Source of the DNA: Candidatus Iainarchaeum sp.
GTDB taxonomy: Archaea; Micrarchaeota; Micrarchaeia; Anstonellales; Bilamarchaeaceae
Direction of reading: 5' to 3'
Length of the DNA: 64,000 bases
NCBI GenBank assembly: GCA_028714535.1
Contig: JAQTME010000001.1
Location: 1,270-65,269, forward strand
Shown: piece by piece, positions 27,566 to 56,851 of the stretch
Layout: each line of letters begins with the position of its first letter
How positions within the stretch are numbered: the first letter of the stretch is position 1
Program-made: the position numbers and the translations under genes
The notes under the pieces: generated by a model
Told to the model about the DNA's origin: nothing
Seen by the model: the letters and a program-made list of their open reading frames with translations, nothing else
The model's database searches: none

Positions 27566-27572
27566 AGAACCG

Positions 27573-40138: not shown

Positions 40139-40846
40139 ATGCAGGCAATACTTCTGGCAGGCGGAAAGGGCACCAGGCTCAGGCCCTATACCGCCGCATT
40201 CCCGAAGCCGCTCGTCCCGCTGGGCGAGAGGCCCATACTTGAAATCGTCATCCGCCAGCTGAAGAAGGCGGGATTCGACGACATCGTGATATCGACAGGC
40301 CACCTGGCTGAGCTCATAAGGACGTATTTCGGCAGTGGCGAAAAACTGGGCGTGAAGATACGCTACGTGCATGAGGAGAAGCCGCTCAGCACCGCCGGAC
40401 CGCTGGCGCTCATAGACGGCCTCGATGAGGACTTCCTTGTCATGAACGGTGACATACTCACAACGCTGGACTACAGGAAAATCATGAAGTTCCATAAGGA
40501 AAAGAAGGCTGCGGCCACCATAAGCGTGTGCGAACGCGTGCAGAAGGTGGATTACGGCGTCATAACCGCAGGCAGCGATTCGGCGCTGCAGGACTACGTG
40601 GAGAAGCCGGCCCTGCCGTTCCTTGTCAGCATGGGCGTGAACGTGCTCAACAGGCGGGCTGTGGCCCACATAAGGAAGGGCGAGGCGCTGGGCATGCCTG
40701 ACCTGATGATGAGGCTCAAGAAGAAGGGCGAGAGCGTGATGTGCTACAAGGAAAAATGCGAATGGCTCGACATAGGCAGGCCGGACGACTACGAACTGGC
40801 GCAGAAGGAGATGGCGGAACACCCGGAGAAGTATCTCGATGGCTGA
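40139..40846 (+). CDS. sugar-phosphate nucleotidyltransferase (glucose-1-phosphate cytidylyl/thymidylyltransferase-like)
   Basis: ILLAGGKGTRLRPYT N-terminal motif. Confidence 0.8.
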   Translation: MQAILLAGGKGTRLRPYTAAFPKPLVPLGERPILEIVIRQLKKAGFDDIVISTGHLAELIRTYFGSGEKLGVKIRYVHEEKPLSTAGPLALIDGLDEDFLVMNGDILTTLDYRKIMKFHKEKKAAATISVCERVQKVDYGVITAGSDSALQDYVEKPALPFLVSMGVNVLNRRAVAHIRKGEALGMPDLMMRLKKKGESVMCYKEKCEWLDIGRPDDYELAQKEMAEHPEKYLDG

Positions 40847-41747
40847 TTATCTTGTCACCGGCGCATGCGGATTCGTCGGCAGGAATTTCGTGGAGCTGCT
40901 AGCGAAGGAAAGGCCTGGCTCGCGCATAGTCGGCGCAGGGCTTGGCGACTGCACGCTTGGCGCACCTGGATTCGAATACAGGAAGGCGGATCTTTCCGAC
41001 TTCGCAGCCGCGGCGGCGCTCATTAGTGACGTCAGGCCTGATTTCATATTCCACTTCGCAGGCGCGCCAGGCGCTTCAGACTGGAACGACCTGCTGAAGG
41101 CGAACATCCATACCACGGTGGCAGTGCTAGAGGCTGCGCTGAAACTGGATAAGAAGCCGAAGGTCTTCGTGGTCGGCTCTGCCGCGGAATACGGCGCTGT
41201 TGGCACGAAGGAACTGCCGCTAAGGGAAACCAAGGCGCCCAGGCCGGTGACGCCATACGGGATATCGATGGCAGCGCGGACTGCCATAGCCACGGGCTAC
41301 GCGCAGCTCGGCTGCCACGTTACGGTCGGTCGGCTGTTCAACCCGCTCGGCCGCGGCGTGTCAGAGGCCATGGCGCCGGGCTCGTTCGCAAAACAGGTGG
41401 CTGAGATAGCGAATGGGAAGCGGCAGGGCCCGATTCTCGTTGGCAACCTTGACACGAAACGCGATTTCGTAGACATCGAGGACGCCTCGCGCGCCTTCCT
41501 TGCGATAGCGGAGAAGGGCAAGCCTGGCGAGATATACAACGTGTGCTCAGGCAAATCGCACAGGCTGGGCGAGCTGCTGGAACTCATGATGAAGCAGGCG
41601 TCAGTGCGCGCGGAGATAAGCGTGGACCAGTCGCGCATAAGGAAAAACGAGGTGCCTGACGTCTATGGGAGCACCTCCAAGATAGCGAAGGACATAGGAT
41701 GGAAGCCGAGGATAAGCTTTGCCGAGAGCATCGGGCAGATGCTCTAG
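40839..41747 (+). CDS. NAD-dependent sugar epimerase/reductase (GDP-6-deoxy-4-keto-hexose reductase-like)
   Basis: VTGACGFVGRN Rossmann motif. It overlaps the upstream stop. Confidence 0.7.
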   Translation: MADYLVTGACGFVGRNFVELLAKERPGSRIVGAGLGDCTLGAPGFEYRKADLSDFAAAAALISDVRPDFIFHFAGAPGASDWNDLLKANIHTTVAVLEAALKLDKKPKVFVVGSAAEYGAVGTKELPLRETKAPRPVTPYGISMAARTAIATGYAQLGCHVTVGRLFNPLGRGVSEAMAPGSFAKQVAEIANGKRQGPILVGNLDTKRDFVDIEDASRAFLAIAEKGKPGEIYNVCSGKSHRLGELLELMMKQASVRAEISVDQSRIRKNEVPDVYGSTSKIAKDIGWKPRISFAESIGQML

Positions 41748-42757
41748 ACGCGCTTTTCAAGCGCGGAGAGCTCTTTTTTGAACAGCGCGACCATGTCTTT
41801 CTCGTTGAAGAACGCCGCTGCCTTGCGCGAACGGTCCGACAGCGCCTTCTTTTCCTTCTGCGGCCTGTCGAAATACCCGATGATAGCGTCGGCGAGCCGG
41901 TCAGAGTCCACAGGCACGACCATGTCCTTGTCTATCTTCCCTGTGAACTCCTTCATGCCGTTCTCTTCAGAAACTATGCATGGCACGCCCGCGGCCATGG
42001 CCTCGATGCATGCCACAGGGAACATGTCGCCCCTTGTCGGCTGGACGTAAAGGGCCGCCTTCCTGAAAACGTCTGATATCGCAGGCACGTTGCGCTGGAC
42101 GCTCATGTAACCAGGCTCGAAACCAGCCACGCCCTCTATAACCCCTGGCTCCAGCCGGGTGATTATGCTGAGCGTCGCATCATCGAAATGCTCGCGAACC
42201 GTTTCCATCGCTGAGAAGAGCGCGTCAAGCCCCTTGTTGTACGGGTCGCTGGTCGCGATGATGGCTATCGAATGCGACTGTAGGGCGGGCTTCGACTTGG
42301 ACAGCGCTGCCATGGGGGCATCGCCCACGAATGGGTAGATTATGCCTGAAGGCTTCTTCTCGCCGAGGCGTGCGAGAAGCTCCATGCCGTAGGTGCCATA
42401 GACGAGATGGCCGTCCACGTCCTTCAGCAGGCTGAGCAGCATCTTCTTTTCAAGGCCGGATATGCGGCCGCTGAGCAGATGGTAGAGCAGGGGCCCGCAG
42501 CTCATGTTGATTATCTTCGCCTTTCCGAGCATGCCCATGCGCCTTTTCAGCGCAGGGTAGTAGTAGCAGGACTCGCACACGACGTAGTCGTAGCCGGCTG
42601 GCACTGAAAGCGACGAGCGCAGGAGGTTCAGGGCCTTGAGCGGCGCCAGCTGGCCCTTGGCAGCCAGGTCCCTGAGCCTGTAGCTCGCGTTGCACGACTC
42701 ACCGAAACGGCGGTGCACAGGGTGCGCGCCGGTCAGAAGCATGAGGTCCTTAGCCAT
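41744..42757 (-). CDS. glycosyltransferase family 4 (GT1/GT4 fold)
   Basis: C-terminal E-x7-E-like GT4 region (EAMAAGVPCIVSE). Confidence 0.8.
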   Translation of the reverse strand: MAKDLMLLTGAHPVHRRFGESCNASYRLRDLAAKGQLAPLKALNLLRSSLSVPAGYDYVVCESCYYYPALKRRMGMLGKAKIINMSCGPLLYHLLSGRISGLEKKMLLSLLKDVDGHLVYGTYGMELLARLGEKKPSGIIYPFVGDAPMAALSKSKPALQSHSIAIIATSDPYNKGLDALFSAMETVREHFDDATLSIITRLEPGVIEGVAGFEPGYMSVQRNVPAISDVFRKAALYVQPTRGDMFPVACIEAMAAGVPCIVSEENGMKEFTGKIDKDMVVPVDSDRLADAIIGYFDRPQKEKKALSDRSRKAAAFFNEKDMVALFKKELSALEKRV

Positions 42758-43661
42758 TCTTCTCCAACCACGCCAGGTATTTTTTCACGCCTTCTTCAAA
42801 CGAAACCTGTTCCTTCCAGCCCAGCCGCCCTATCTTTTCCGTGCTGAGGAGCATCACACGGACGTCGCCCGCCCACCCGCGCGGCGTGCCCGTGTATGAG
42901 AACTTCGGCCTCACCCTCATCAGCCGGCACATCAGCCCTGCGATTTCATCGACGCGGGCCTTGCCCCGGCTGCCCACGTTGAAGGCGTCATATGCGGCCT
43001 TCTGCTTTTTCCATGCTGTGAGCGTCGCTGATACGCAGTCGGAAACATGGAGGTAGGACTTGTCCTGCCTGCCGTCGCCCAAAATCTCCATCTCCTTCGG
43101 GTTGGCCCTGAGCTTGCGGTAGAAGTCAAGCATGACGCCGTGCGTGCTCCGCTCGCCGAAGATGTTCGCGAAGCGGAGCGACGTTCCTTTGATGCCATAG
43201 GAGCCTGAATACGCTGAAAGATACGCCTCGCAGGCGAGCTTGGACGCCCCGTAATTGCTTATGGGCGCGCACGGATACGTTTCCGGCGTGGGAATGACGT
43301 CGGCCTCGCCATAGACCGTGGATGTGGAGGCGAAAACGACGCGCTTCACGTCGGCCTTCCTGCATGATTCGAGCACTGCGAACGTCCCTGCGACGTTCTG
43401 CTCGAAGCTCTTGGTCGGGTTGGCCGCGCTGGAGCGGACGTCCGGGTCGGCGGCGAGATGGAAAACGGCGTCAGCGCCGCGCAGCTCTGCAGAAAGGTCC
43501 TGTCTGATGTCCTTGCGCACTAACGCAGCCCCAGGGCTGATGTTCTCCTTCTTCCCGCAGGACAGGTCGTCGATTACTGTTATGCCGGCGCCTTCGGAAA
43601 CGAGTCTATCCACCAGGTGGGAGCCTATAAATCCGGCTCCGCCTGTGACCGCGATCCTCAT
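42750..43661 (-). CDS. NAD-dependent epimerase/dehydratase (UDP-glucose 4-epimerase-like)
   Basis: VTGGAGFIGSH and the YGASK catalytic motif. Confidence 0.8.
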   Translation of the reverse strand: MRIAVTGGAGFIGSHLVDRLVSEGAGITVIDDLSCGKKENISPGAALVRKDIRQDLSAELRGADAVFHLAADPDVRSSAANPTKSFEQNVAGTFAVLESCRKADVKRVVFASTSTVYGEADVIPTPETYPCAPISNYGASKLACEAYLSAYSGSYGIKGTSLRFANIFGERSTHGVMLDFYRKLRANPKEMEILGDGRQDKSYLHVSDCVSATLTAWKKQKAAYDAFNVGSRGKARVDEIAGLMCRLMRVRPKFSYTGTPRGWAGDVRVMLLSTEKIGRLGWKEQVSFEEGVKKYLAWLEKNG

Positions 43662-43771
43662 CAGGAAACAATTGCTGTGCTATGTTTAAATATCCTGAAG
43701 ACGACAGATAAATGGAGTGAAGTGGAGGGGCGCAGGAAGGCGAATTTGCATGAATACCCGGTCATGAGCGA

Positions 43772-44815
43772 GTGATACCGGGGATTGCCAGGAGCATCGT
43801 GATAGGCATGAACATTTTCGACAGGTTGGGGGAAACGCGGGCGAACATAGCATTTGCAAGAGAATACACGCTGGAGCTGCAAGAGCAGGGCAGACGCCTC
43901 ATGAAGACGGGTAAGACAATAAGCCGGATTTGCGAGGTTTGCGGCTCGCCGCAACAAGAAGATAGGTTCATGGCCCCGGTATATGATTTTGTTGCATGCA
44001 GAAACTGCGGTTTCGTGTATGCGAAGAGCATACTTGGCGAGGAGGCCATGGATAAATTTTACAGGCATGATGAGGTAGCACAGCGTTCATGGAGCAAACA
44101 GCTTGAGAGGCTTGAGGCCAATCCGAATACGACCCAGTATCCCGGGCTCGTCACGAGGATAATGAAGAATGTCCGGGGCAGGGAAAGGGCGCTGGATTTC
44201 GGCTGTGGCCAGGGGGAGTTTTTGTACGAACTCAAAGGGCACTTTCGGAAGGTCATTGGCGTGGAACTCGGCAAGGAGCAAGCCGAAACCGCCAGGAGAA
44301 AATTCGGGGTGGAAGTGCTCGAGGGCGATATAGGCAGCCTTGGACTGCAAAAGGAGTCGTTTGACCTGATATGCATGAACCAGGTGATTGAGCACCTGCC
44401 GCGTGTGAATGATGTGCTGAAGAAACTTGTGCAGCTCCTCAAGCCAGAGGGAGTCCTGGCAATCACTTGCCCGAACCTCGATTCCTGGAGCATGCGGATA
44501 TTCAGGGAAAAACACTCGCACGTCAATACACAGGTTCACGTCAATATGTTCAGCCCAAAAACCATCGAAAAGCTTGCGCTAAGGCACGGCCTGAAAAAAA
44601 GGCAGGTTGGAACGTATATGCTCGATACGACGCTAATCGACCTTGCTTATCTCATATTCGCGAAAAAGAGCTTCATGCACCGGTGCAATTTCAACATTCT
44701 CCTCTATCCGCCTTCATGGCTGCTGGAGAAGGCAGTGAATAAGGCGAACGAGATTTCCAATAACGTCCTCATGGGCAGCTCAGGCTCGTATATAGAAGCG
44801 ATTTTCATGAAATGA
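43772..44815 (+). CDS. SAM-dependent methyltransferase with an N-terminal zinc-ribbon
   Basis: CEVCGS...CRNCGF zinc ribbon followed by methyltransferase motif I LDFGCGQG. The start is uncertain; Met residues lie at about 43772, 43808 and 43903. Confidence 0.65.
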   Translation: MIPGIARSIVIGMNIFDRLGETRANIAFAREYTLELQEQGRRLMKTGKTISRICEVCGSPQQEDRFMAPVYDFVACRNCGFVYAKSILGEEAMDKFYRHDEVAQRSWSKQLERLEANPNTTQYPGLVTRIMKNVRGRERALDFGCGQGEFLYELKGHFRKVIGVELGKEQAETARRKFGVEVLEGDIGSLGLQKESFDLICMNQVIEHLPRVNDVLKKLVQLLKPEGVLAITCPNLDSWSMRIFREKHSHVNTQVHVNMFSPKTIEKLALRHGLKKRQVGTYMLDTTLIDLAYLIFAKKSFMHRCNFNILLYPPSWLLEKAVNKANEISNNVLMGSSGSYIEAIFMK

Positions 44816-44877
44816 ACTGCTGGATTGTCAGGCGGTAGGGTTAAACTGCACGACCGCTAGAAGTTCACAAATTTACT

Positions 44878-44933
44878 GAAGTTCTGTTTTAACTAGAAAT
44901 TATGTCTCTTGAAAAATAAGGAAACAGAACTTT
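44878..44933. terminator. 12-bp stem / 32-nt loop hairpin in the AT-rich region between two convergent genes
   Basis: gaagttctgttt at 44878-44889 pairs with aaacagaacttt at 44922-44933 (11 Watson-Crick pairs plus one G-U). T-runs are nearby. Confidence 0.3.
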
Positions 44934-45036
44934 GGTAGAGATGTTGGTGTGGACCCTATTTGTTTCATCTGTGGGGTTTTCACACTGAGCAAGTGAGTTC
45001 CGCTTGGATCTCAAACTCATTGCCAATGGCCATTCT

Positions 45037-48000
45037 TTATGTATTTTGATAATAGAGTTTGTAGTTGAACGCGCTGATGGAACTGATCCAGCTACTCCGG
45101 TCCGTTCTATAAACATTGGTTCCGTCACGTTGCCAATAGACGCCAACATTGTTTCCTGAAGGCTCGTTGGTATTCAACACAATCCAATAAGTTCCTGCAT
45201 TCAGAGAGAAAGGCGTGAAGTTGAAATCAGCATATGCAACTGAATCGGGAACTGATGAGGTCGTTATGTTGGCGTACGCACTCTCGTTCACAAGAGTTCC
45301 TGAAGGAGCGCCGCTTGCATCTGTTTCTATTCTCAGGTTGAGGTTGCCTGAAGGCGAACCTACTTTCTGGAGGGCCAGTTGAACTCGTGTTATGTTGTTT
45401 GTTCCACTGGTCGTTATCTGAGTGGCCCGTTCAGCCAGAGCACCTTCAGACCAACGCCCGATTATTGCGTCAAGTATTGTTCCTGTAGTATAGCTCAGGC
45501 CAATATAATCAGTGGAGGCAGTGTAGTTCACTTCCGGCCCGAGGGCTACTGATTGTGTCTGATTGAGCGCATGGCCGCATTTGAGCTGCCCTAACGCAAG
45601 TTTATCCACCCCTTTGCCGTATTCTCCTACTGAAAAGCCGAAAGCAGTAATGTTTGCGAGAGAGTAGGACTGGTTGGCACCTCGTTCCGTGCCATTAACC
45701 AGCAGGAGTTCCGTGCGGTTGTTTATGTAGATTGCCTGGACTATCGTCAGATTTCCCTGCGCCATAGTCACGCCGGTATAAGGGTGATAAGAACCGCCAG
45801 TGTTTATGCTCCAACTCATTGCTCCGGTAGTGTATTGATTCTGCCCGTCGAGCATATTGTAGAAACCAAGTGGATAGTTGCCGCAGATGCCATTGGTGAC
45901 GTTTCCTATTCCATAACTCGCTCCGCAGAACTGGGCATAGTATGGATTGGACATCGGTATTATCGCCGCCTCGCATTCCCAGGTGGTCTTGTTGTTCGAA
46001 GGGAGCGCATAGCCGAGGTCTGCGGAAGTTGGGTAAGTGCTGGAGGTTGTATCGTTCAGGTAGAATAGGGTGTCTCCAAGGAAGGAGTATGGATACGTAT
46101 TCGTCATCACTCCAGCTTGCTGATTTGCAAAAGCGCCGTTAATTCCATTCGAACTGTTCTGATAGACTTCATATACCTGTGTCGGATCGGATACGTAGGG
46201 AGCGCCCGGATTTCGGTAGCAAAGTCTTGCCTGGAGTGCGCCATCAGTCATGTTTGCACAGATAAGGGAGGAGTTGTTGTCCGCAAGCGGATAGAGGTCG
46301 GTAAGGTTGGCATGGCAGTATTGAACGAAGCTCGGGTAGGCCGAGGAGTTGTCTGATTTGACTATGCGAAGGTCAGTACAATTGAGGTTGTGATGGACGG
46401 ACGAATTGGCGATGGCACAAAGAGCGTATGACGCATTGCCTAGGTTTGTGGCGCCAGTTGTATTTAAATCTCTGCAACTCAGCCAATTTTCACCCAACCA
46501 CAAAGATGAGTTGGGGTTATATTGAAGGATACCGAAGTTGCTGAACGAGGCGAGATTTGAAAGCGAGAGAGTATTTCCTACCGTATCGGGCGTGCTGTTC
46601 AAATCGGTCCAAGTTCCATTGTATTTGAAAAGGCGGAATTGGGATTCGTTATAACTGGATAAATCGCTGTCAACCCAGTTAAAAGACACATGGTCTATAG
46701 AGGGAGAACCGGTGGTGGTTGAGACATAGATGAAATTCTGGTTGAATGAAGTAGACCCAGAGGGTAAAGCTGAGGCATTGGCTGCCCAGTTTATTGAATA
46801 CGATTCGCTTGTTGCACTATCATTTACCGAAAGGTTGGTGAAATTCTGGTAGTTGCCCGCGGGATTGTCAAAAATGATAGCGGAAAGGTTGATGGTTATT
46901 GGGGAAGCATTGGCATTTATCTGGAAGTCGGCGGTGTTATTGTAGTAGTGGTCACTAATAAAGTAGTTATTGCCATCGCCAATCAAAACCCCTGCTTTGT
47001 GATTATTGTATAACGTATTGCCGATGAGAATATTGCCAGAGCTAGGCCCGACTTCATAGCTATTACTGGTAACAAAATAGATTCCATCGAGATTATCGTA
47101 TAGGGTGTTATTTTGGATAGTACTATTGAAAACAGAATCGAGCCAGATGCTTCCATTATCCCAATGATAACCGGGGTTGGCAGTATTGTTGTAGGCAATA
47201 TTGTCAATGATACTGATGTTGTAATTGTTGTAGAAATAAAACCCCCACCAGCAGTTGAAGACGGTGTTATTTATGAACGAGTTGTTATACCCCTGATTGG
47301 AGTTTATACCAACGGTGTGGACGCACTCGGTACCACTAGCATAGTTGGGGCAGGTGGTATTAGGCTTGGAGTTATTCGTGTCATAAATCACACAATTTTT
47401 GATTGTAACATTACTAAATAGACTGCCGCGATGAAATTGAATGCCCCACGCATCAATGTCATTATAGCTAGGGGGTGTCGAAACACCGCTGAGACTTATA
47501 TTGTGGCCATTACAATCAAGCACAAGATTGGAGGAGTTAATCAGAAAACAGGCAAATCCCCAATCCGTTGCCGGTGCTCCAATGTCCCATAATGGCGCTC
47601 CTGTGACATTGCCCAGAAGCATTGCATTTCCATTCACATATCCGCATCCGTAATAAGGAATCGAACGATTGGTCTCATTGGTAACTAAGTAACCGATACC
47701 AGAAATGTTTGCATAGCCTTTGATTGAATAAGTATGATTGAGGACAGTCAGGCTATCTGGGATCGAATAGTTGCATGATAGATTGTCCGGGGCAAGTGAA
47801 CACGAATAGTTCACACCGTCTACCTCGATTTGACTGCCAATGCTCAGGGCTACGCTCGCACCCATGTTGATGTTTATTGGGAAGGTGAAGTAGTTGGTAT
47901 CGTTGAGGGGGGTTGGGGAAATGAAATAAACGTTTGGGGAAGATATGACCGTGAACGTCACCAGCGACGAATTTTGGTAAGTTCCATTCCAGCAGGTTGC

Positions 48001-49272
48001 ATTGAGGACGTATACATCAGGGGAGAAGGTCGTATTAGAAAAGGAAAAGAGGGTGTTGTTAGTTACATCTTGATTCGCAAGTATAAGTCCGGCTCCGGTC
48101 GAAACGTTCAGGAAGTAACTGAGGTTGTCACCACTACAAGTCACGTTTATGTCTAGGGGGGTTATTGCGTAGGTAGAATTGGTTGGACTTGAAGTGTAAA
48201 CATTTAGGGTACCAGCTACGTCAGGGATTGTATAGTTCACCTCAACTCCGAGCGTCACGTTGAAGCTCTGATTGAGTGTATTGAAGCACTTGACCTGTCC
48301 AACTGCCATTCTGTCCACATTTGTTCCAGACGAACCAGCGCTGAACCCCACTGCGGTTATGTTGGCGGGGGAGTATGCAGTGATGTTGTATCCAACTTCA
48401 GAACCATTTATCAGCTCGTTGTGGGTGCGATTGAGCATAAAGGTGGTCTGAACAATTGTAAGGTTGCCGATGTAGAATTTCGGGTTGAGTCTTGAGTATG
48501 TAACGTACGAACCGCCCGGGTTGTAGAGCCAGCTCATAACTCCTTTTCCAATTTGGTTTTGCCCATCAAGGAAACCAAAAAAGCCCACGGGGTAGTTGCC
48601 GCACACACCGTTGGTGACATTTCCAGTAGCGTAGCTAGCTCCACAGAATTGGAAGTAGTAGGGCTGGGTGATTGGAATGACCGCGACCTCGCATCCTATC
48701 GTACTCTTGTTGTCGGTGTTCAGCTTCCAGCCGAGCGATGCTTGTGAAGCACCGGTGTCATTCAGATAGAACAATTTCGCGCCAAGGAAGGAGTATTGTG
48801 GGTATGCGTTCGTCATGGTACCGCTCATGAAATTTGCAAAGGCACCCTGGGTGGTCCCATCTGCTGCGTCCTTGTAGATCATGAACACTGTGCCATTATC
48901 TGATACGTTTGCTGCGTCAAGGTTGCGGTAGCACAGTCTTGCCTGGAGCGCACCGTCGGTCATGTTCGCGCAAATGAGGGACGAGTTGCTGTCCGCTAGT
49001 GGATAAAGGTTGGTTAGATTGGCATGGCAGTATTGGACGAAGCTCGGGTAGGCCGAGGAATTGTCCGATTTTATGATACGGAGGTCTGAGCAGTTGAGAT
49101 TGTACTGGACGGACGAGTTGATGATGGCACACAGAGTGTAGGGTGCATTGCCACTATTTGATGCTCCAGACGTGTTCAAGTCACGACAGGAAGTCCAGCT
49201 GGGGCCATACCAGTCTGCAGAAGCAAAAGTCATCATAAAAAGGATGATAATGAGACCGAGTTTGTTTCGCAT
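45037..49272 (-). CDS. giant secreted surface protein (1411 aa from the signal-peptide Met): two copies of a ~330-aa Cys-containing domain, a central right-handed parallel beta-helix (PbH1-like) region, and very many N-x-S/T sequons
   Basis: Signal peptide MRNKLGLIIILFMMTFASA. Beta-helix repeats such as NNTLYDNLDGIYF and GNTLYNNHKAGVLIG. More than 100 N-x-S/T sequons. GC content is about 40-45% against about 60% for the rest of the window, with AAT/TAT/ATT-type codons. Confidence 0.8.
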   Translation of the reverse strand: MRNKLGLIIILFMMTFASADWYGPSWTSCRDLNTSGASNSGNAPYTLCAIINSSVQYNLNCSDLRIIKSDNSSAYPSFVQYCHANLTNLYPLADSNSSLICANMTDGALQARLCYRNLDAANVSDNGTVFMIYKDAADGTTQGAFANFMSGTMTNAYPQYSFLGAKLFYLNDTGASQASLGWKLNTDNKSTIGCEVAVIPITQPYYFQFCGASYATGNVTNGVCGNYPVGFFGFLDGQNQIGKGVMSWLYNPGGSYVTYSRLNPKFYIGNLTIVQTTFMLNRTHNELINGSEVGYNITAYSPANITAVGFSAGSSGTNVDRMAVGQVKCFNTLNQSFNVTLGVEVNYTIPDVAGTLNVYTSSPTNSTYAITPLDINVTCSGDNLSYFLNVSTGAGLILANQDVTNNTLFSFSNTTFSPDVYVLNATCWNGTYQNSSLVTFTVISSPNVYFISPTPLNDTNYFTFPININMGASVALSIGSQIEVDGVNYSCSLAPDNLSCNYSIPDSLTVLNHTYSIKGYANISGIGYLVTNETNRSIPYYGCGYVNGNAMLLGNVTGAPLWDIGAPATDWGFACFLINSSNLVLDCNGHNISLSGVSTPPSYNDIDAWGIQFHRGSLFSNVTIKNCVIYDTNNSKPNTTCPNYASGTECVHTVGINSNQGYNNSFINNTVFNCWWGFYFYNNYNISIIDNIAYNNTANPGYHWDNGSIWLDSVFNSTIQNNTLYDNLDGIYFVTSNSYEVGPSSGNILIGNTLYNNHKAGVLIGDGNNYFISDHYYNNTADFQINANASPITINLSAIIFDNPAGNYQNFTNLSVNDSATSESYSINWAANASALPSGSTSFNQNFIYVSTTTGSPSIDHVSFNWVDSDLSSYNESQFRLFKYNGTWTDLNSTPDTVGNTLSLSNLASFSNFGILQYNPNSSLWLGENWLSCRDLNTTGATNLGNASYALCAIANSSVHHNLNCTDLRIVKSDNSSAYPSFVQYCHANLTDLYPLADNNSSLICANMTDGALQARLCYRNPGAPYVSDPTQVYEVYQNSSNGINGAFANQQAGVMTNTYPYSFLGDTLFYLNDTTSSTYPTSADLGYALPSNNKTTWECEAAIIPMSNPYYAQFCGASYGIGNVTNGICGNYPLGFYNMLDGQNQYTTGAMSWSINTGGSYHPYTGVTMAQGNLTIVQAIYINNRTELLLVNGTERGANQSYSLANITAFGFSVGEYGKGVDKLALGQLKCGHALNQTQSVALGPEVNYTASTDYIGLSYTTGTILDAIIGRWSEGALAERATQITTSGTNNITRVQLALQKVGSPSGNLNLRIETDASGAPSGTLVNESAYANITTSSVPDSVAYADFNFTPFSLNAGTYWIVLNTNEPSGNNVGVYWQRDGTNVYRTDRSSWISSISAFNYKLYYQNT
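45520..46503 (-). repeat. intragenic tandem duplication, copy 2 (aa ~933-1260 of the giant protein)
   Basis: SCRDLNTTGATN...ICANMTDGALQARLCYRN...EVNYT is repeated near the N-terminus. Nucleotide stretches of 100-150 nt are roughly 85-90% identical between copies (for example 46340-46440 against 49040-49150). Confidence 0.75.
48229..49212 (-). repeat. intragenic tandem duplication, copy 1 (aa ~30-357)
   Basis: See copy 2. The two copies are direct repeats separated by about 2.7 kb. Confidence 0.75.
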
Positions 49273-49300
49273 TGCCCGCACCTCCGAACAAAACCACATG

Positions 49301-49323: not shown

Positions 49324-49411
49324 ATGCATTCAACAGGCCTGCACAGTATATAATTCTTGCCTTACAGGAATCAAAAGAGAAACTTGTTACTGGCGGGAGT
49401 TGTAGATTGCC

Positions 49412-51259
49412 ATGATAGTGATGCTCGCGTATTTTCTTGTTGTGATGCTCGCCATGGGATTCGCAGCCTGGCGGCTTCTCGGCGCTCAAGAGGATGACGA
49501 CTGCACGAAGGCATTCATCTGGCTGGCGACAGGCATCGTGCTTTTTGTGATGGCGACCGCCGTTCTCGGATTCATCGGTCAGGCGAACTGGGCCGCATAC
49601 CTCGTTATCGCCGCTGCGCTTCTTGGCGCCGCATACTGGAAAGACAGCAAGGCCGGCATCAGATACAATCTAAGGCTGCCTGTGCTGGGCCTGGAATGGA
49701 AGCTGGTCTGCCTCATCTTTCTTGTCCATCTCTATGTGTACGCGAGCGGTGCGTTCTCCTACCCATGGCTCGAGGACGACGACCCGTGGGAGCATGCCGC
49801 GGCAGCGCATTACGTGTCGCTGTACGGCAGCTACATCCAGCCCACTGGCCTGCCCCTCCACTACCTCGTGCCATACACGCCATTCTACGACGTGCTCCTG
49901 GGAGTGCTTTTCCAGCTCGACAATTCATCGATGCAGGCTGTGCTGAAATTCTTCAATGCCCTGCTGGTCAGCCTCGCCATACCGTTGTTCTTCTGCTGGG
50001 CGAAGGAAAGGCTCGGCGGCCGCACGGCCCTCTGGGCCACGTTCGCGCTCGCTGTGCTGCCCTGCTTCATGAGCCATTTCATATGGTCGCAGACGCTCGC
50101 GCTCATGCTCGTGTTCCCTGCATTATATTTCATCGAGAAGTTCTCCAAGGCTGATGCCCACAAGAAGGCTTTCGGGGTTCTAGCGGCCTTTGCGGTCGCA
50201 TCCGTATTCATGACGCAACCCTCCACCGGAGCCATGTTCGGCGGCCTGGCGGTTGTCTACATAGCCGCGCTCGCGCTACCGGACATCATTACATCGCGCA
50301 CGCTCATTCTCTCTAAGCTGAAGCCGCCCGCAATCGCGCTCGGCGCAGGCCTCCTCATCTCAATCGTGCTTTTCTGGGGCCCGGTTTTCGCCATGTATCC
50401 TGTCGAGCAGGTGTTCGCGCAGAACAGCCTGAGCGCAAAATTGCTCACAGACGTCCAGGGGGATACGGGCGGCGGGCTTGTTTACAGCATAAGCGACTTC
50501 ATCGACGCACCGTCCTCATCAAAGATGGACCAGCCGATAGGCTTCGGCCCGGCGATGGCCCTGTTGATGATTATCGGTGTGATTGCGGCCATATACGCGC
50601 TGCGTTCCCAGGAAAACAGGGATTCCGCAGCCGTCATGCTGCTGTGGCTTGCCTACGGCCTCATCGGCACAGAAGGCAACCTGCTGCCTGTGAAGCTCGT
50701 GCCCCACCGCTTCTGGGTTTTCCTTGCCATACCGGTCGCGATCCTGGCCGGATACGGCGCAGTCAAGGCGCTGGAGTACATAGAGAAGAACCGCAAGGGC
50801 ATGGAACTGATAGCCAAGGCGCTTATAGTGGCTGCGCTGCTGTTCACGTCAGCGTATCCGAAGGGCGTGGTGGAGACGTCCCAATGGCCGCCGGGCGCCA
50901 AGTGGGTTTCAGATGCGCAGATTTCAGGCTACGTCGGCCTCAAGGGCCTGCCGGCGAACACGCCGGTATTCGGCTTCTGTTTCGGCGAGGAGTTCGCAGA
51001 CGGCATGGACAAGGCGGGCTACGCCTGGATAAAGGAAGTGCGCGATTACAAAACGCGCTCCATCACCGACAGCATGGACGGCAACTACGCATTCCTGAAA
51101 AAATACGGCTACCAATACGCTGTGATCGACCAGAGCTGCCTGAATGCATTCACCGCAGACCAGATAAACGCCAAGCTCAACGGATTGGGCGGCGACGGCA
51201 GATTCACTGTGGCGGAGCAATATTCGAACCAGGCGTTCATCACGCTCAAGGTGAATTAG
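49412..51259 (+). CDS. GT-C-fold polytopic membrane glycosyltransferase-like protein (not a canonical AglB/STT3)
   Basis: About 13 TM helices plus a C-terminal soluble domain of about 150 aa. An acidic first-loop motif YPWLEDDDPWEH resembles the GT-C catalytic loop. No WWDYG motif is present. Confidence 0.55.
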   Translation: MIVMLAYFLVVMLAMGFAAWRLLGAQEDDDCTKAFIWLATGIVLFVMATAVLGFIGQANWAAYLVIAAALLGAAYWKDSKAGIRYNLRLPVLGLEWKLVCLIFLVHLYVYASGAFSYPWLEDDDPWEHAAAAHYVSLYGSYIQPTGLPLHYLVPYTPFYDVLLGVLFQLDNSSMQAVLKFFNALLVSLAIPLFFCWAKERLGGRTALWATFALAVLPCFMSHFIWSQTLALMLVFPALYFIEKFSKADAHKKAFGVLAAFAVASVFMTQPSTGAMFGGLAVVYIAALALPDIITSRTLILSKLKPPAIALGAGLLISIVLFWGPVFAMYPVEQVFAQNSLSAKLLTDVQGDTGGGLVYSISDFIDAPSSSKMDQPIGFGPAMALLMIIGVIAAIYALRSQENRDSAAVMLLWLAYGLIGTEGNLLPVKLVPHRFWVFLAIPVAILAGYGAVKALEYIEKNRKGMELIAKALIVAALLFTSAYPKGVVETSQWPPGAKWVSDAQISGYVGLKGLPANTPVFGFCFGEEFADGMDKAGYAWIKEVRDYKTRSITDSMDGNYAFLKKYGYQYAVIDQSCLNAFTADQINAKLNGLGGDGRFTVAEQYSNQAFITLKVN

Positions 51260-52202
51260 TTTCGATGAGGTAGCGTATCGTCCTTCTGACGCCGTCTTCT
51301 ATGCTGACCTTCGGCTTCCAGCCGAGCGCCTCCATGCGCTTCGTGGAAAGCAGGACGACCGGCTGGTCCCCGACCCATCCGCCTGCGCCGCCCGTATGAC
51401 GGTATTCTACGTCATTAAGACGCATCTCCTGCACTATCATGTCAGCGACAGTGTCCACGCCGATGGTGTAGCCCTGCCCGAGATTGTAGATTGAAGTGGC
51501 ACCTGCTTTCGCTGCCCTGGCCCCTGCCATCATCCCCGCCACGCAGTCCTTGACATAAAGGTAGGACTTCTTCTGCTTCCCGTCGCCGAGGATTTCCAGC
51601 CGCCGGGGATTTTTTTTCAGCTTGCGGTAGAAGTCTATCACAACGCCGTGCGGATAGCGCTCGCCGACTATGGAGACGAACCTGTAGATGGAATTCGCTA
51701 TGCCGTAATACTCTGAATAGGCCTCGATGAGCGCCTCCCCTGCGAGTTTGGACGCGCCGTAGAGCGAGTTCTGTATCATCGGCGCATCCTCTGGCACAGG
51801 GAAAGCCTTCTGGATGCCATAGACGGCCCCTGACGAGCTGAATGCGATGCCCTTTATGTCGTTGAGCCGCATCGCCTCGAGCACGTTGTGCGTCGCGATG
51901 GTATTCTGCTCCAGGTCTATTGAGGTATTTGCCATTCCGCCGCGGATGTCTGCATTGGCGGCCAGGTGGAATATGAACTCGGCGCCTGCGCATGCCTTGA
52001 TGAGTGCGTCCTTCTTCAGCAGGTCGAGCTTCTGGAACGAGTAGTTCTTTGCCTTTTTGTGCGCTTCGACAATTTTTGGCTGGCCTGTGCGCATGCTGTC
52101 CAGGACGAGCACGTTCGCGCCCTGCAACAGGAGCTCGTCGACCACATGGGAGCCTATGAATCCTGCGCCACCAGTGACAACAACGCTCTTTCCGGAGAAC
52201 AT
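51246..52202 (-). CDS. NAD-dependent epimerase/dehydratase
   Basis: VVVTGGAGFIGSH and the YGASK catalytic motif. Confidence 0.8.
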   Translation of the reverse strand: MFSGKSVVVTGGAGFIGSHVVDELLLQGANVLVLDSMRTGQPKIVEAHKKAKNYSFQKLDLLKKDALIKACAGAEFIFHLAANADIRGGMANTSIDLEQNTIATHNVLEAMRLNDIKGIAFSSSGAVYGIQKAFPVPEDAPMIQNSLYGASKLAGEALIEAYSEYYGIANSIYRFVSIVGERYPHGVVIDFYRKLKKNPRRLEILGDGKQKKSYLYVKDCVAGMMAGARAAKAGATSIYNLGQGYTIGVDTVADMIVQEMRLNDVEYRHTGGAGGWVGDQPVVLLSTKRMEALGWKPKVSIEDGVRRTIRYLIETNSP

Positions 52203-53185
52203 CAGCGCACCGCCCTGTCGTTGAAGACGATGCGCGAGCCCTCGCTCGGGAAGCCGAACTTCACCTCGCGCATTGGGGCGAGCGCCTTGCGCACCGCGGC
52301 CTGCTTCTCCTCTTCGCAGTAGAACATGAAGAACCCGCCGCCGCCTGCGCCAAGGACCTTGCCGCCGGTTGCGCCCGCCTCCTTAGCCGCCGAGTAGTAG
52401 TTGTCTATGAGCTCTGTGCTGACGCCGGAAGCGAACGTGCGCTTCATCTGCCAGGACTCGTCGAGCATCTCGCCGAACGAGCTGAGGTCCCCTTTCTCCA
52501 GCTTGGACTTCGCCTGCTCTGCCATGGAACGGAGGCGGTTGAGGTATTCGGTCTTGTCGCCTATCTTCTCCTTCTGCTCCTTGAGCACCCTCCCTGAGCT
52601 CCTGCTCACGCCGGTGTGGAAGAACAATAGTTTTTTCCTGAAGGCTGCCAGCGTGCTCGGCTTTATCTTAACCGGCTCAACTGAAACCGTGTCGTCCTTG
52701 TTGAAGCGTATGAGGTTGAAGCCGCCGAAGGCCGCGATGTACTGGTCCTGCTTGCCTATGGGCTCGCTGAGCACGCCTATCTCTATCCTGCAGGCCGCCT
52801 TGGCCAGTTTGTCAGCATCAGCAGGCTCGCCGCGGAATGCGTAGAGCGCGTTTAATACGCCGACAAGGAAGCTGCTGGAAGAGCCGAGGCCGGTGCCGTG
52901 GGAAGGGAAATCGGCGAGGGCGCTGAGCTCTATGGCATGGTCCACGCCGGTGAAGCGCAGGGCCTCGCGCAGCGTGGGATGGAGTATCTGGTCCACAGAC
53001 TCGACTATCTCGGTGAGCCGGTAGTTGAGCTGGATGGCATTGTCGAACTTGGGGTTGGCCATTATGTAGACGTACTTGTCTATGGCCGCGCTGAGGACGC
53101 AACCGTGGTCCAGCTCGTAATATTTCCTGAAGTCGGTCCCCCCTCCGAAGAAGGATATGCGGAACGGCGTCCTTGATGTAAGCAT
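52202..53185 (-). CDS. hddA: GHMP-family sugar kinase, D-glycero-alpha-D-manno-heptose 7-phosphate kinase-like (HddA)
   Basis: GHMP motif PSHGTGLGSSSSF. It sits with gmhA, hddC and gmhB. Confidence 0.7.
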   Translation of the reverse strand: MLTSRTPFRISFFGGGTDFRKYYELDHGCVLSAAIDKYVYIMANPKFDNAIQLNYRLTEIVESVDQILHPTLREALRFTGVDHAIELSALADFPSHGTGLGSSSSFLVGVLNALYAFRGEPADADKLAKAACRIEIGVLSEPIGKQDQYIAAFGGFNLIRFNKDDTVSVEPVKIKPSTLAAFRKKLLFFHTGVSRSSGRVLKEQKEKIGDKTEYLNRLRSMAEQAKSKLEKGDLSSFGEMLDESWQMKRTFASGVSTELIDNYYSAAKEAGATGGKVLGAGGGGFFMFYCEEEKQAAVRKALAPMREVKFGFPSEGSRIVFNDRAVR

Positions 53186-53189
53186 GGCA

Positions 53190-53762
53190 TCAGGCCTCTC
53201 CCATTTGTTTTCTCACAATGTGTATCTTGAGCAGGTGGCCGATGACGAAATGCACGTCCTCGGCAATCTCCACGTTGTCTGTCTTGGCTATTATGCAGTG
53301 TTTCGCGGTGCTGGCGAGCTTTCCGCCCTTGAAAGCGGCCAGGCCGGCTGTGTGCGCCCCTGCGCCGTTAGCATATTCGATGGCGCGCAGGACGTTGGGT
53401 GAATTCCCGCTGGTGCTTATGCCGATTGCCAGGTCGCCCGGCCTCAGCAGGTTCTCCAGCTGCTCCTTGAATATCATGTCGTATGACGTGTCGTTGCCCC
53501 AGGCCGTCATCAGCGGCACGTTCTCGTTGAGGCAGATGATCCTGAGGCGCTTCTTGCCAGGGACTATCGTGCCCTTTGACAGGTCGGCTGCGAAATGGAC
53601 CGCGTTAGTGGCGCTGTCGCCGTTGCCGAAAACATATATCGTGCCGCCGCGCGCGTTCGTTTCAAGCAGGAGATTTGCGAGGGACGCCACGTCCTCCTCG
53701 TCTATGGCGTCTAGGCATTGTTTCAGCATTTTCACGTAGGAATTCAAATCAGGCACGTTCAT
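53190..53762 (-). CDS. gmhA: phosphoheptose isomerase, second paralog
   Basis: SIS motif VFGNGDSATNAVHFAADL. Confidence 0.85.
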   Translation of the reverse strand: MNVPDLNSYVKMLKQCLDAIDEEDVASLANLLLETNARGGTIYVFGNGDSATNAVHFAADLSKGTIVPGKKRLRIICLNENVPLMTAWGNDTSYDMIFKEQLENLLRPGDLAIGISTSGNSPNVLRAIEYANGAGAHTAGLAAFKGGKLASTAKHCIIAKTDNVEIAEDVHFVIGHLLKIHIVRKQMGEA

Positions 53763-54457
53763 GCTATCCCCCCGCCGAGCGATTTTTTCAGGCGCTCTGG
53801 CGTGCCGATGTCAAGTATGTTCTCCCGGGTCATGTAAGCGTAAAGCTTCCCGCCTTTCCTGAGGATCCCGGGCAGGGCGTCCTTGTCCAGCATAGATTTA
53901 CCATCAGGAAAATACTTTAAGATTGCCTTCTCGAAGCAGTAGACCCCCGCATTGGATATGTTGTCGAATTTGTCGCCTGGCTTCGGCTTCCCCAGGAACC
54001 TGACGACCTCCCAATCCGGCGTGACCTCTAGTATGTCTGAGTCGTAGGGATGGTCGCTCTCATGCACAGTGAGCGTGCCCAGCCCGCCCTTTGCGGTGTG
54101 GAACCCGACCAGCTTGCGGAGGTCCATGCCGCCGAGCAGGTCGCCATACATCATGACGAACCTGTCGCTGAGCAGGGGCGCTGCCTTTTTCAGTGCGCCG
54201 CCTGTGCCGAGAAGCTCCGTCTCTATGGAATATTCGATGTGCACGCCGAGCCCGCTGCCGTCGCCGAAATGCGCCTGCACCAGCTCCGCCAGGTGGCCTG
54301 CGCAGATGACGATGTCCTTCATGCCATAGCGCGCCAGCCAGAGTATCTGATGCTCCAGCACGGGTTTTCCGTTCACCATGACAAGGCCTTTCGGCAGGGC
54401 TTTTGTCAGCTTGCCGAGCCTGGTGCCAAGGCCGCCTGCGACTATGACGCCCTTCAT
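53759..54457 (-). CDS. hddC: heptose 1-phosphate guanylyltransferase-like nucleotidyltransferase (HddC)
   Basis: KGVIVAGGLGTRLGKLT and 232 aa. It overlaps the flanking genes by 4 nt. Confidence 0.7.
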   Translation of the reverse strand: MKGVIVAGGLGTRLGKLTKALPKGLVMVNGKPVLEHQILWLARYGMKDIVICAGHLAELVQAHFGDGSGLGVHIEYSIETELLGTGGALKKAAPLLSDRFVMMYGDLLGGMDLRKLVGFHTAKGGLGTLTVHESDHPYDSDILEVTPDWEVVRFLGKPKPGDKFDNISNAGVYCFEKAILKYFPDGKSMLDKDALPGILRKGGKLYAYMTRENILDIGTPERLKKSLGGGIA

Positions 54458-56780: not shown

Positions 56781-56851
56781 GGGAACACCAGGGCTGCCGT
56801 ACGGCTGCCGTTCGACTTATTCTGCCCGGCAACCGAATAAAAAGATATTGC

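Follow-up and report, generated by a model that had tools for sequence, protein, structure and literature searches.

A glycan-biosynthesis island in an archaeal genome carries one long gene whose base composition differs from that of its surroundings, raising the question of what the encoded protein does and how the gene came to be there. The gene lies in the window, the 64,000-nucleotide stretch of DNA analyzed here. The taxon label Iainarchaeota (DPANN) rests on the NCBI MAG name 'Candidatus ainarchaeum sp.', which resolves to Iainarchaeota, kingdom Nanobdellati; the RFC, XPD helicase, and methyltransferase proteins of the window are identical to NCBI entries MDD5339617/618/666. As an earlier note had proposed, positions 45037 to 49299 hold a real, single frame on the minus strand (1,420 codons and a stop). 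Translation likely starts at nt 49272 (Met10), judging from a Shine-Dalgarno-like GGAGGTG (49279..49285, minus strand) read 6 nt 5′ of this ATG. A TATA-box-like TTATATA (49347..49353, minus strand) was also read 5′ of the gene and may function as a promoter, and BLASTN showed the upstream region (to 49371) to be ∼70% conserved with that of the homologue in a related lineage (L001). Around the gene are PseB/DegT/NeuB/PseG-type nonulosonic-acid genes, a flippase, GT2, GT4, and GT9 genes, and heptose genes. This complete-looking glycan toolkit supports the proposed setting of an exported, sequon-rich, adhesin-like beta-helix protein inside a glycan-biosynthesis island.

The gene proved compositionally distinct in GC, GC3, codon usage, and dinucleotide signature, as had been claimed. 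Its GC content was 0.470 (0.588 for the remaining window) and its GC3 0.536, against ∼0.78 across 50+ other ORFs of the window. Scored against the codon usage of the window itself, its log-likelihood gave a z score of −6.8, the least host-adapted value in the window, and the dinucleotide signature peaked at 44 to 48 kb (142 versus a median of 42). Two details of the earlier description required correction. The measured GC of 47.0% lies above the ∼40 to 45% suggested, with values of ≤45% in just 32% of 500-bp segments, and AAT, TAT, and ATT had risen to 47, 44, and 28% (24, 26, and 5% in reference genes) rather than replacing AAC, TAC, and ATC. From the gene's own amino acids and host codon usage, a GC of 0.557 was predicted, and codon choice made up ∼8.6 of the 11.8-point GC deficit; the atypical composition is owed mostly to codon choice, not to amino acid content. 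Nor is the oddity confined to one gene. The low-GC block is sharply bounded, at ∼43.6 and ∼49.4 kb, and also takes in a gene for a class I SAM methyltransferase whose N terminus carries a CxxC...CxxC motif (43808..44815, plus strand), convergent with the sequon-rich gene, with a GC of 0.509, a GC3 of 0.646, and a codon z score of −3.6. Intergenic DNA in the block is AT rich too (GC, 0.416).

The encoded protein (∼151 kDa before glycans; pI 4.5) is modular, and all its features lie on the minus strand. The signal peptide noted earlier is present but begins at Met10: a Sec-type sequence, MRNKLGLIIILFMMTFASA, spans aa 10 to 28 (49216..49272), with cleavage predicted after ASA, and is equivalent to the N termini of two relatives (P0001 and P0019). 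It is followed by D1a, a divergent DUF2341 plus LamG-like module containing 10 cysteines and 20 sequons (aa 29 to 357; 48229..49215), two Ig-like domains of low AF2 confidence (aa 358 to 560; 47620..48228), and a right-handed parallel beta-helix with a pectin-lyase fold (aa 561 to 800; 46900..47619) ending in a conserved cap, H784-x-Y-N-N-x-x-D791. A post-helix beta-sandwich (FDNPxG...KYNGTWTDLNSTPDT; aa 801 to 930; 46510..46899) is the most conserved part, with 38 conserved columns, and the signature of the family. A second DUF2341/LamG-like module, D1b (aa 931 to 1260; 45520..46509), precedes a C-terminal jelly-roll beta-sandwich (aa 1261 to 1420; 45040..45519) weakly similar to CBM or galactose-binding-like domains. 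The two ∼330-aa Cys-containing domains recognized earlier correspond to an internal duplication (aa 27 to 357 and 931 to 1260; 63% identity). Pfam likewise bore out the central beta-helix, with Beta_helix and NosD above gathering scores and DUF2341 weak, below threshold. An AF2 model of aa 455 to 935 reached a pLDDT of 78 and a pTM of 0.77; D1 was modeled poorly (pLDDT, 20 to 35), and the model of the C-terminal domain was likewise not confident. A 19-residue hydropathy scan beyond the signal peptide peaked at 1.06, and neither a C-terminal TM helix nor a PGF-CTERM was found, in line with the earlier reading.

Sequon saturation, also claimed earlier, exceeds what composition would give: 85 sequons were counted against 32.7 ± 4.9 in shuffled sequences (z = 10.7; 2.6-fold enrichment), and the reversed control motif [ST]-x-N occurred 31 times in the same protein. 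The total was 85 by every definition tried, short of the >100 first estimated. Across three D1 copies just ∼64% identical, 16 of 23 sequon columns were kept. Two further exported proteins of the window were also ∼2.5-fold enriched. Because no AglB/STT3 gene was found within the window, use of these sequons is presented here as a prediction.

Searches with the beta-helix core identified at least 811 relatives at an E value of ≤1e−3 and 141 at ≤1e−30, mostly giant proteins, with matches concentrated on aa 560 to 930. Named relatives are "right-handed parallel beta-helix repeat-containing proteins" of Micrarchaeota or Thermoplasmata. The best 150 of the at least 811 relatives were as sequon rich as the window protein (median, 5.1 per 100 aa; 2.07-fold more than in shuffled sequences), and ∼5 to 15 of these 150 shared the Ig-like pair. 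Giant members (MFH2101157.1, MBU0532898.1, and MEM3335955.1) are homologous over aa ∼560 to 930 (E values down to 1e−279) and resemble the window protein in sequon saturation and Asn/Ser/Thr-rich composition, but contain many beta-helix units and reach 2 to 5 times its length. In about half of the giant relatives, the C terminus bears a TM anchor or a conserved "...ETYYFYANL" ending; the window protein has neither, and the giant relative checked (L005) has native GC in its own genome, unlike the window gene. P0019, a 1,455-aa protein of a close Iainarchaeota relative (Logan SRR22234379_5555), lies between rhomboid and ftsZ genes, and its FtsZ neighbor clusters at 90% with the FtsZ encoded by the window's MAG. 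It is 38% identical to the window protein over 654 aa (45% in the Ig-like pair), with the same order of signal peptide, DUF2341/LamG, Ig, Ig, beta-helix, sandwich, and DUF2341/LamG. It differs in its canonical DUF2341 domains (E value, 2e−18; two stretches), C terminus, fewer sequons (3.4 per 100 aa), native composition (GC3 of 0.744 versus 0.791 for its neighbors), and position outside any glycan island. The window protein is thus no isolated oddity and belongs to a large, already recognized class of beta-helix/lectin-like surface proteins.

We think it probable, if well short of certain, that the product is a heavily N-glycosylated, glycan-binding surface adhesin of DPANN type, encoded in an old low-GC cassette. 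It would be exported by Sec, with removal of the signal peptide, and the cell's oligosaccharyltransferase would N-glycosylate many of the 85 sequons. The attached glycan, plausibly the nonulosonic-acid/heptose product of the surrounding island, would coat and stabilize the protein. Non-covalent lectin-like or protein contacts may retain it at the cell surface; having no anchor, it could also simply be secreted. With a core of two Ig-like domains, beta-helix, and conserved beta-sandwich flanked by two DUF2341/LamG-like lectin-type modules, the groove of the helix and the jelly-roll modules could bind glycans at the surface of a host cell or in the cell's own envelope, so that the protein would serve in adhesion or cell contact and not as part of an S-layer lattice. 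Comparable proteins have been described. Nanobdella aerobiophila encodes pectin-lyase-like proteins of 908 to 1,320 aa with Ig folds and 36 to 52 predicted N-glycosylation sites, for which a role in host contact was proposed (bioRxiv 10.1101/2023.10.27.564410). Likened by features and not by sequence, MJ1_0451, MJ1_0701, and MJ1_0776 of that organism share with the window protein a DPANN origin, a signal peptide, a length of ∼0.9 to 1.4 k aa, tens of sequons, and a parallel beta-helix combined with Ig-like folds; the window protein additionally has the two DUF2341/LamG-like modules flanking its core and the C-terminal jelly-roll, and, unlike the trio, is the product of a low-GC cassette lying within a glycan island. 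The Micrarchaeote Mia14 has an expanded, island-borne set of LamG-like proteins (PMC5498576), and DUF2341 proteins are proposed archaeal pilus-tip adhesins (PMC4858521).

The same fold could instead belong to an extracellular enzyme that acts on polysaccharides (depolymerase, lyase, or C5-epimerase) and whose groove cuts or remodels glycans of the host envelope or the cell's own capsule, the LamG-like, Ig-like, and jelly-roll domains then being carbohydrate-binding modules. Host cell-wall degradation was proposed for the analogous N. aerobiophila proteins (bioRxiv 10.1101/2023.10.27.564410), and the weak CBM-like resemblance of the C-terminal domain would suit such a role. We nevertheless regard an enzyme as unlikely. 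In an alignment of 26 family sequences, the conserved columns of the beta-helix were Asn/Gly ladder positions, no conserved Asp/Glu/Lys/Arg cluster was found except the cap HxYNNxxD at the helix end, and identity to any enzyme was 10 to 18%. Phage tailspike depolymerases and AlgE-type mannuronan C5-epimerases share the pectin-lyase fold at 9 to 18% identity, but no conserved catalytic residues, virion-attachment domain, or viral context was found for the window protein. The ladder-type columns, the lack of an acidic cluster, and a conserved core that lies in the post-helix sandwich would favor an adhesin over an enzyme. Among its closest folds are many genuine polysaccharide depolymerases and epimerases, so an enzymatic role retains some probability.

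The S-layer association suggested earlier found no support. A SlaA-like main lattice glycoprotein, without its own anchor and held by a partner protein, would be large, acidic, exported, and sequon rich, as this protein is, which also lacks a TM anchor and is encoded in a glycosylation island. Some DPANN candidate S-layer proteins likewise lack a C-terminal TM helix (bioRxiv 10.1101/2023.10.27.564410), and cell-wall islands of Haloquadratum include the S-layer gene (PMC4535781). Against this, the gene has the poorest codon adaptation in the window. The most highly expressed genes usually show the opposite, a codon usage well adapted to the host. Moreover, the family consists of very many giant paralogues and no single conserved lattice protein, its genes come and go at the rhomboid/ftsZ slot between close relatives, the closest relative (P0001) has lost the entire Ig/beta-helix core, and the sequon-rich protein and methyltransferase were absent among 185,579 GTDB species representatives. 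A lattice protein therefore appears quite improbable.

The origin of the low-GC cassette was addressed by comparison with L001, which carries the same adjoining methyltransferase/glycoprotein pair, also low in GC (GC3 of 0.584 versus 0.739 ± 0.052), at another position and orientation in an island of different gene content. Synonymous differences between the window and L001 were 27% for the methyltransferase, 39 to 43% for the glycoprotein, and 22 to 40% for the flanks. Since a related lineage also has the pair, and its synonymous divergence is at or above the level of the flanking genes, its acquisition was old, and the horizontal transfer proposed earlier is plausible in that form and not as a recent event. 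We infer from these sequences that the recipient may have been a common ancestor of two or more related lineages and that the cassette has since moved about within the glycan island. Across the native/low-GC junction, a contig from a separate assembly (L003) was 99.985% identical. Alternatively, selection could have kept GC3 low in the two lineages without any foreign origin.

A composition that is not foreign at all, produced by selection (for example, for slow translation favoring co-translational glycosylation and folding) or by local mutation or recombination bias on the gene pair, would account for low GC3 persisting despite changes in 27 to 43% of synonymous codons. It is nonetheless extremely improbable, as the methyltransferase, an ordinary cytoplasmic enzyme, has the same bias, the intergenic DNA of the block shares it, and genes of the same architecture or family in L004 and L005 have native GC3. 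The earlier note had allowed that native Asn/Tyr-rich secreted genes might share this composition; within the window, the other exported, sequon-enriched proteins have native GC3, so no such sharing was seen.

The low GC and sharp borders would fit a tailspike-like receptor-binding protein gained recently from a virus or mobile element, and the fold is tailspike-like. A distant homologue (P0002) also lies on a contig of ∼46 to 47% GC that is rich in orphans, transcribed from one strand, and bears HNH endonucleases. We judge this very improbable given the flank-level divergence from L001. No integrase, tRNA target, or terminal repeat was found at the cassette borders, IMG/VR scans with the glycoprotein, P0002, and an L002 neighbor returned no relative, and PHROGs recognized only the HNH protein of L002. 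Family members in cellular genomes lie among tRNA synthetase, ftsZ, and polD genes.

The island resembles Haloquadratum walsbyi GI1, a hypervariable island combining a surface glycoprotein with glycan and envelope biosynthesis genes; the content of archaeal cell-wall islands varies between lineages via recombination and mobile elements (PMC4535781). The window and L001 islands similarly vary in content and cassette position, but belong to another phylum and involve other protein families, and no mobile-element genes were seen at the window's cassette. Just beyond the block, a gene of native GC transcribed divergently from the sequon-rich gene (49412..51259, plus strand) encodes a polytopic membrane protein of 615 aa that weakly matches PMT_2 (GT-C-like), a possible outer-face glycosyltransferase that may be functionally linked to the glycoprotein.

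The sequon-rich surface glycoprotein gene (45037..49299, minus strand) is an uninterrupted ORF of 1420 codons, and the sharply distinct GC content and codon choice ascribed to it in the earlier note were borne out. Its GC content was 0.470 compared with 0.588 in the remaining window, with values of 0.431, 0.445, and 0.536 at codon positions 1, 2, and 3, respectively; GC3 was ~0.78 in more than 50 other ORFs of the window. Codon log-likelihood under window usage fell 6.8 standard deviations below that of the other genes (z = −6.8), and the dinucleotide signature of the window peaked exactly at this gene. The initial estimate of ~40 to 45% GC was too low, as only a third of the 500-bp windows were at ≤45%, the lowest of which (0.394) lay within the beta-helix segment. 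Similarly, AAT, TAT, and ATT were used more often (47%, 44%, and 28% versus 24%, 26%, and 5% in reference genes), although they did not replace AAC, TAC, and ATC as first claimed, and codon shifts were also found for Gly, Val, Ala, Ser, and Thr. Re-encoding the amino acids of the glycoprotein with the synonymous codon usage of the window gave an expected GC content of 0.557. Thus, of the 11.8 GC points by which the gene falls short, ~3 reflect a composition rich in Asn, Tyr, Ile, Ser, and Thr, and ~8.6 reflect codon choice. The compositional anomaly is real, driven by codon choice, and exceeds what amino acid content explains.

The low-GC block is wider than the glycoprotein gene, reaching from ~43.6 kb to a sharp edge on the right at 49.4 kb. 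It takes in a convergent class I SAM-dependent methyltransferase gene (43808..44815, plus strand; GC, 0.509; GC3, 0.646; codon z = −3.6) and the intervening AT-rich spacer. Low GC did not extend to other exported, sequon-enriched proteins in the window, contrary to what would be expected if it were native to such genes. Those encoded at 60070-61353 and 61350-63275 (both minus strand) carried 8 and 12 sequons versus 3.1 and 4.7 expected (~2.5-fold), and both genes had native GC3. Sequon enrichment is therefore a property of exported proteins in this organism, and low GC is not. These two genes adjoin each other and lack Pfam or NCBIfam matches; one product has a signal peptide and a C-terminal transmembrane (TM) segment and the other an N-terminal anchor, so that both are candidates for a role in the envelope or as anchoring partners. 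Elsewhere, a 258-codon ORF at 56744-57520 (minus strand; codon z = −4.0; GC3, 0.61; no Pfam match) overlaps the end of an LPG_synthase_TM gene and may be either spurious or a further atypical gene.

Assembly chimerism was ruled out at the left junction by a separately assembled contig, L003, which was 99.985% identical to positions 40523-47150 and confirmed the transition from native to low GC. The L003 match ends before the right junction (49.3 to 49.4 kb); a homologous arrangement in L001, a locus from a related organism, makes chimerism unlikely overall. The flanking genes in L001 were 80 to 90% identical to those of the window at the nucleotide level, and its methyltransferase shared 85% amino acid identity. 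GC3 of the L001 methyltransferase and glycoprotein (P0001) genes was 0.63 and 0.58, respectively, versus 0.739 ± 0.052. In L001 the two genes are in tandem and lie 16 kb from their position in the window, where they are convergent; their neighbors on either side correspond to window genes 27573-28163 and 28220-29206. At identical residues, codons differed between the window and L001 at 27% for the methyltransferase and 39 to 43% for the glycoprotein, compared with 22 to 40% across eight flanking orthologues. Synonymous divergence was thus no lower than in the flanks, and the pair was not confined to one strain, which places the methyltransferase/glycoprotein cassette before the split of the two lineages. 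Horizontal acquisition, one of two explanations proposed earlier, keeps the support of the atypical composition, but recent arrival is not supported: the anomaly is old and common to the neighboring gene, with no sign of recent transfer. A search for mobility signatures at the cassette found no nearby tRNA, integrase, or border repeats, and its neighbors are sugar-pathway genes. This old low-GC cassette, shuffled within a glycan island, is one of the two most distinctive features of the locus, and it serves as a caution that genuinely low GC need not mean recent transfer.

P0001 is shorter than the glycoprotein, consisting of one D1 module (the duplicated module flanking the core of the window protein) followed by two Ig/jelly-roll pairs, and it lacks the beta-helix core. 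The D1 module of P0001 (L001:10001-12727) is a mosaic; its first ~50 residues are nearer to the N-side copy, D1a (79.6% nucleotide identity), and the rest is nearer to the C-side copy, D1b (72 to 86%). From the sequences, this pattern is consistent with loss of the core by recombination between D1 copies within an invariant block.

Membership in the family (relatives of the glycoprotein core) does not itself impose low GC, since the gene for P0019, from contig L004, had a native-like GC3 (0.744 versus 0.791 ± 0.074) and a family gene on a Micrarchaeota contig showed no GC contrast with its neighbors. L004 comes from a close relative, its FtsZ falling in the same 90% cluster as that of the metagenome-assembled genome (MAG) from which the window derives. 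P0019 (L004:10001-14368) occupies a rhomboid/ftsZ slot that in three other relatives holds an unrelated 486-aa cytoplasmic-type protein (e.g., L006:8364-9824). This slot is thus variable among close Iainarchaeota relatives, and family genes belong to the flexible gene pool.

A more distant homologue, P0002 (1825 aa, 126 sequons, C-terminal TM), was found on a contig of 47.7 kb and about 46 to 47% GC, L002 (Logan SRR33452760_9698). P0002 is followed by a 521-aa NosD-like protein, and the other L002 genes are nearly all orphans on the same strand; in addition, there are two or three genes for HNH endonucleases and one weak match to Fic. L002 may represent a new mobile element or virus of archaea. 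Identification as a virus became a low-probability idea once PHROGs searches with ten L002 proteins matched HNH only, and IMG/VR lent no support: scans with the glycoprotein, P0002, and an L002 neighbor returned no relatives. Neither database tied the family or L002 to known viruses, and a recent viral origin of the glycoprotein is disfavored. It is improbable that the low GC of the cassette is actively maintained, with Iainarchaeota repeatedly recombining a "surface-identity cassette" with a lower-GC external gene pool, which would consist of other DPANN lineages or unrecognized viruses such as the ~47% GC contig encoding P0002. If so, adhesins and their glycan decoration would be swapped as units, changing host range or escaping viruses.

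Translation of the glycoprotein probably begins at the second ATG (49272), which is preceded 6 nt upstream by GGAGGTG; a TTATATA element lies upstream of the gene at 49347-49353. This ATG opens MRNKLGLIIILFMMTFASA↓DW, a predicted Sec-type signal peptide in agreement with the earlier note, and the homologues P0001 and P0019 start alike at the N terminus. Inspection by eye excluded a class III (pilin-type) signal, as position −2 is Leu rather than Lys or Arg and a classic ASA↓D cleavage site is present. Outside the signal peptide no hydrophobic segment was found in the glycoprotein (maximum hydropathy, 1.06), and the protein ends in FNYKLYYQNT, confirming the reported absence of a C-terminal TM helix or PGF-CTERM anchor. 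The predicted mature protein is ~151 kDa with a pI of 4.5.

The two ~330-aa Cys-containing domains described previously correspond to aa 27-357 (D1a) and 931-1260 (D1b), which are 63% identical with every Cys conserved. Matches to DUF2341 (PF10102) were below threshold (14.2 bits for D1a, 13.0 for D1b, and 21 for the whole glycoprotein; cutoff, 23.4). However, P0019 (1455 aa) carries two DUF2341 stretches (E value, 2e−18) at the same two positions flanking its Ig/beta-helix core, shares 38% identity with the glycoprotein over 654 aa of the core, and matches its W..W/K..C...C...CSDLR Cys pattern; P0002 also matched DUF2341 (E value, 7.5e−10). By transitivity and conserved architectural position, the Cys-containing domains can be assigned as diverged DUF2341/LamG-like modules, and their placement on both sides of the core is ancestral. 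A 50-residue block is nearly invariant in D1a, D1b, and P0001. Gene conversion was rejected as the cause, as 38 to 40% of the identical residues in the block use different codons, which points to purifying selection. A jelly-roll/concanavalin-like fold for the second half of the module was tested with AF2 on aa 931-1260, which gave a pLDDT of 20 to 35 from only four sequences.

Between D1a and D1b lie two Ig-like domains (by homology), a parallel beta-helix, and a beta-sandwich. The central right-handed parallel beta-helix of the earlier note was recovered at aa 561-800 by Beta_helix (PF13229; 37.0 bits; cutoff, 25.9) and NosD (PF05048; 24.1 bits; cutoff, 23.6), together with TIGR03804 (19.7 versus 19.45 bits). 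AF2 modeling of aa 455-935 from a 26-sequence alignment (pLDDT, 78; pTM, 0.77) produced the stacked three-strand coils of a pectin-lyase fold in three dimensions, with most 10-residue helix blocks at a pLDDT of 90 to 98 and the sandwich at 81 to 91. An enzymatic role for the beta-helix is the main rival to a contact function. In the 26-sequence family alignment, the helix carried a conserved Asn/Gly ladder and an HxYNNxxD cap without an acidic cluster; the repeat alignment is imperfect, and residues of the groove that determine specificity may vary. The post-helix sandwich held 38 conserved columns in this alignment, forming a family signature. The C-terminal 160 aa were modeled as a jelly-roll (pLDDT, 70 to 85) with weak galactose-binding/CBM-like similarity. 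Foldseek with the aa 931-1420 model gave weak matches to CBM and phage-fiber jelly-rolls, a hint for the C-terminal domain only, and the glycoprotein sequence matched nothing in the PDB.

When 1.84 billion representatives were searched exhaustively with phmmer, 811 relatives emerged at an E value of ≤1e−3 (412 at ≤1e−10 and 141 at ≤1e−30), mostly 1,000 to 6,700 aa in length. This overturned an orphan reading drawn from a word-indexed search with the full protein, which had found two relatives; the same type of search with the D1 alignment and the C-terminal domain gave no matches and missed even the known relative P0001. Named members were "right-handed parallel beta-helix repeat-containing proteins" from Micrarchaeota and Thermoplasmata MAGs. 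Among the best 150 of the 811 relatives, 70 to 147 covered positions within aa 560-930 and 5 to 15 covered the Ig region, while only P0001 aligned to D1 and the C-terminal domain. Lineage-specific divergence of the DUF2341/LamG modules and C-terminal domain is the other most distinctive feature. About half of these 150 carried a C-terminal TM-like segment, 18 had a conserved end motif, and 56 had neither, so an anchorless member is not unusual. GTDB genome scans with the glycoprotein and the methyltransferase alignment yielded no relatives, nor did metagenome contigs when scanned with the D1 alignment.

The glycoprotein contains 85 N-x-S/T sequons, none with Pro at x, rather than the more than 100 first counted by eye. 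Saturation was nevertheless clear, as composition-preserving shuffles yielded 32.7 ± 4.9 sequons (maximum, 51; z = 10.7), and the reversed motif [ST]-x-N occurred 31 times, matching chance expectation. Sequons were evenly spaced (4 to 9 per 100 aa), and 16 of 23 sequon columns were conserved across three copies of the duplicated domain (~64% overall identity), a conservation that supports N-glycosylation indirectly. The best 150 of the 811 relatives had a median of 5.1 sequons per 100 aa, 2.07-fold over shuffles, with 12.5% Asn; saturation at about 5 to 6 per 100 aa and ~2-fold over composition is thus general across these best-matching relatives.

DPANN archaea are believed to rely on physically contacting other cells, and the proteins that make this contact are almost uncharacterized. 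The best-supported reading is that the glycoprotein is a lectin-rich DPANN-type adhesin or contact protein, predicted to be Sec-exported, heavily N-glycosylated, and retained at the surface without a membrane anchor of its own, where it would bind ligands. The protein class is already known. Pectin-lyase-like and Ig-fold proteins with 36 to 52 predicted N-glycosylation sites have been described in Nanobdella aerobiophila (bioRxiv 10.1101/2023.10.27.564410), and the glycoprotein resembles them in its DPANN assignment (by NCBI name), signal peptide, beta-helix, Ig-like domains (by homology), and 85 sequons. The adhesin reading also matches the island-borne LamG-like proteins of Micrarchaeote Mia14 (PMC5498576), the proposal that DUF2341 proteins are pilus-tip adhesins (PMC4858521), and the variable cell wall islands of Haloquadratum (PMC4535781). 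The adhesin half of the earlier proposal was thereby retained, and the alternative of an S-layer role is disfavored: the protein lacks a C-terminal anchor, and a dedicated anchoring partner was not identified. An S-layer protein would also be expected from a single conserved, highly expressed, host-adapted gene, whereas this family is multi-paralogous and flexible and the gene sits at a codon z of −6.8. Overall, the glycoprotein is a real finding, partly as first described.

The RFC-large, XPD-type helicase, and methyltransferase proteins of the window were identical to MDD5339617.1, MDD5339618.1, and MDD5339666.1 ("Candidatus ainarchaeum sp."), and by NCBI name the taxon is Iainarchaeota, in the DPANN kingdom Nanobdellati. 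The stretch from 20 to 57 kb around the glycoprotein gene is a glycan island. It encodes PseB, DegT, NeuB, and PseG-like nonulosonic acid enzymes, a cytidylyltransferase, a flippase of the Wzx/MurJ type, glycan enzymes of the GT2, GT4, and GT9 types, a deacetylase, and acetyl- and methyltransferases, and it carries two sets of heptose/NDP-sugar genes. No STT3/AglB gene was found within the 64-kb window. The sugar-nucleotide sets lie at 25001-28163 (GT9, PfkB, SIS) and 51246-55023 (epimerase, GHMP kinase, SIS, NTP-transferase, HAD phosphatase). As only the first is common to L001, the 36- to 57-kb part of the island appears lineage specific. Divergent from the glycoprotein gene across a 112-bp spacer, 49412-51259 (plus strand) encodes a polytopic membrane protein of 615 aa that matches PMT_2 and LIC_10190 only weakly (GT-C-like) and has no relative in the PDB by sequence search; it is possibly an outer-face glycosyltransferase whose substrate is the glycoprotein or its glycan. 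Exact-protein look-up returned no record for this neighbor, for the glycoprotein with either start, or for the FtsZ of the MAG that includes the window, which would have linked it to a P0019 orthologue.

At ~1.4 k aa the glycoprotein is a compact example beside giant relatives of mostly 2 to 7 k aa. Its size, well-modeled core, family signature in the post-helix beta-sandwich, and linkage to a nonulosonic acid/heptose island and a GT-C-like membrane enzyme recommend it as a practical target for studies of expression, glycan binding, and glycoproteomics.

Two further features were also noted. The Aminotran_3 sugar aminotransferase of L001 (773 aa, with a faint LAGLIDADG_3 match) contains a ~1-kb stretch (L001:738-1741; GC, 0.458) without a counterpart in its 438-aa window orthologue (34504-35820), which looks like an intein or homing endonuclease insertion into an enzyme of the glycan pathway. 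At 10775-10839 (minus strand), an Rfam tRNA match of 30.3 bits (gathering score, 29) that was not called by ARAGORN may represent an archaeal tRNA that is degenerate, atypical, or interrupted by an intron.
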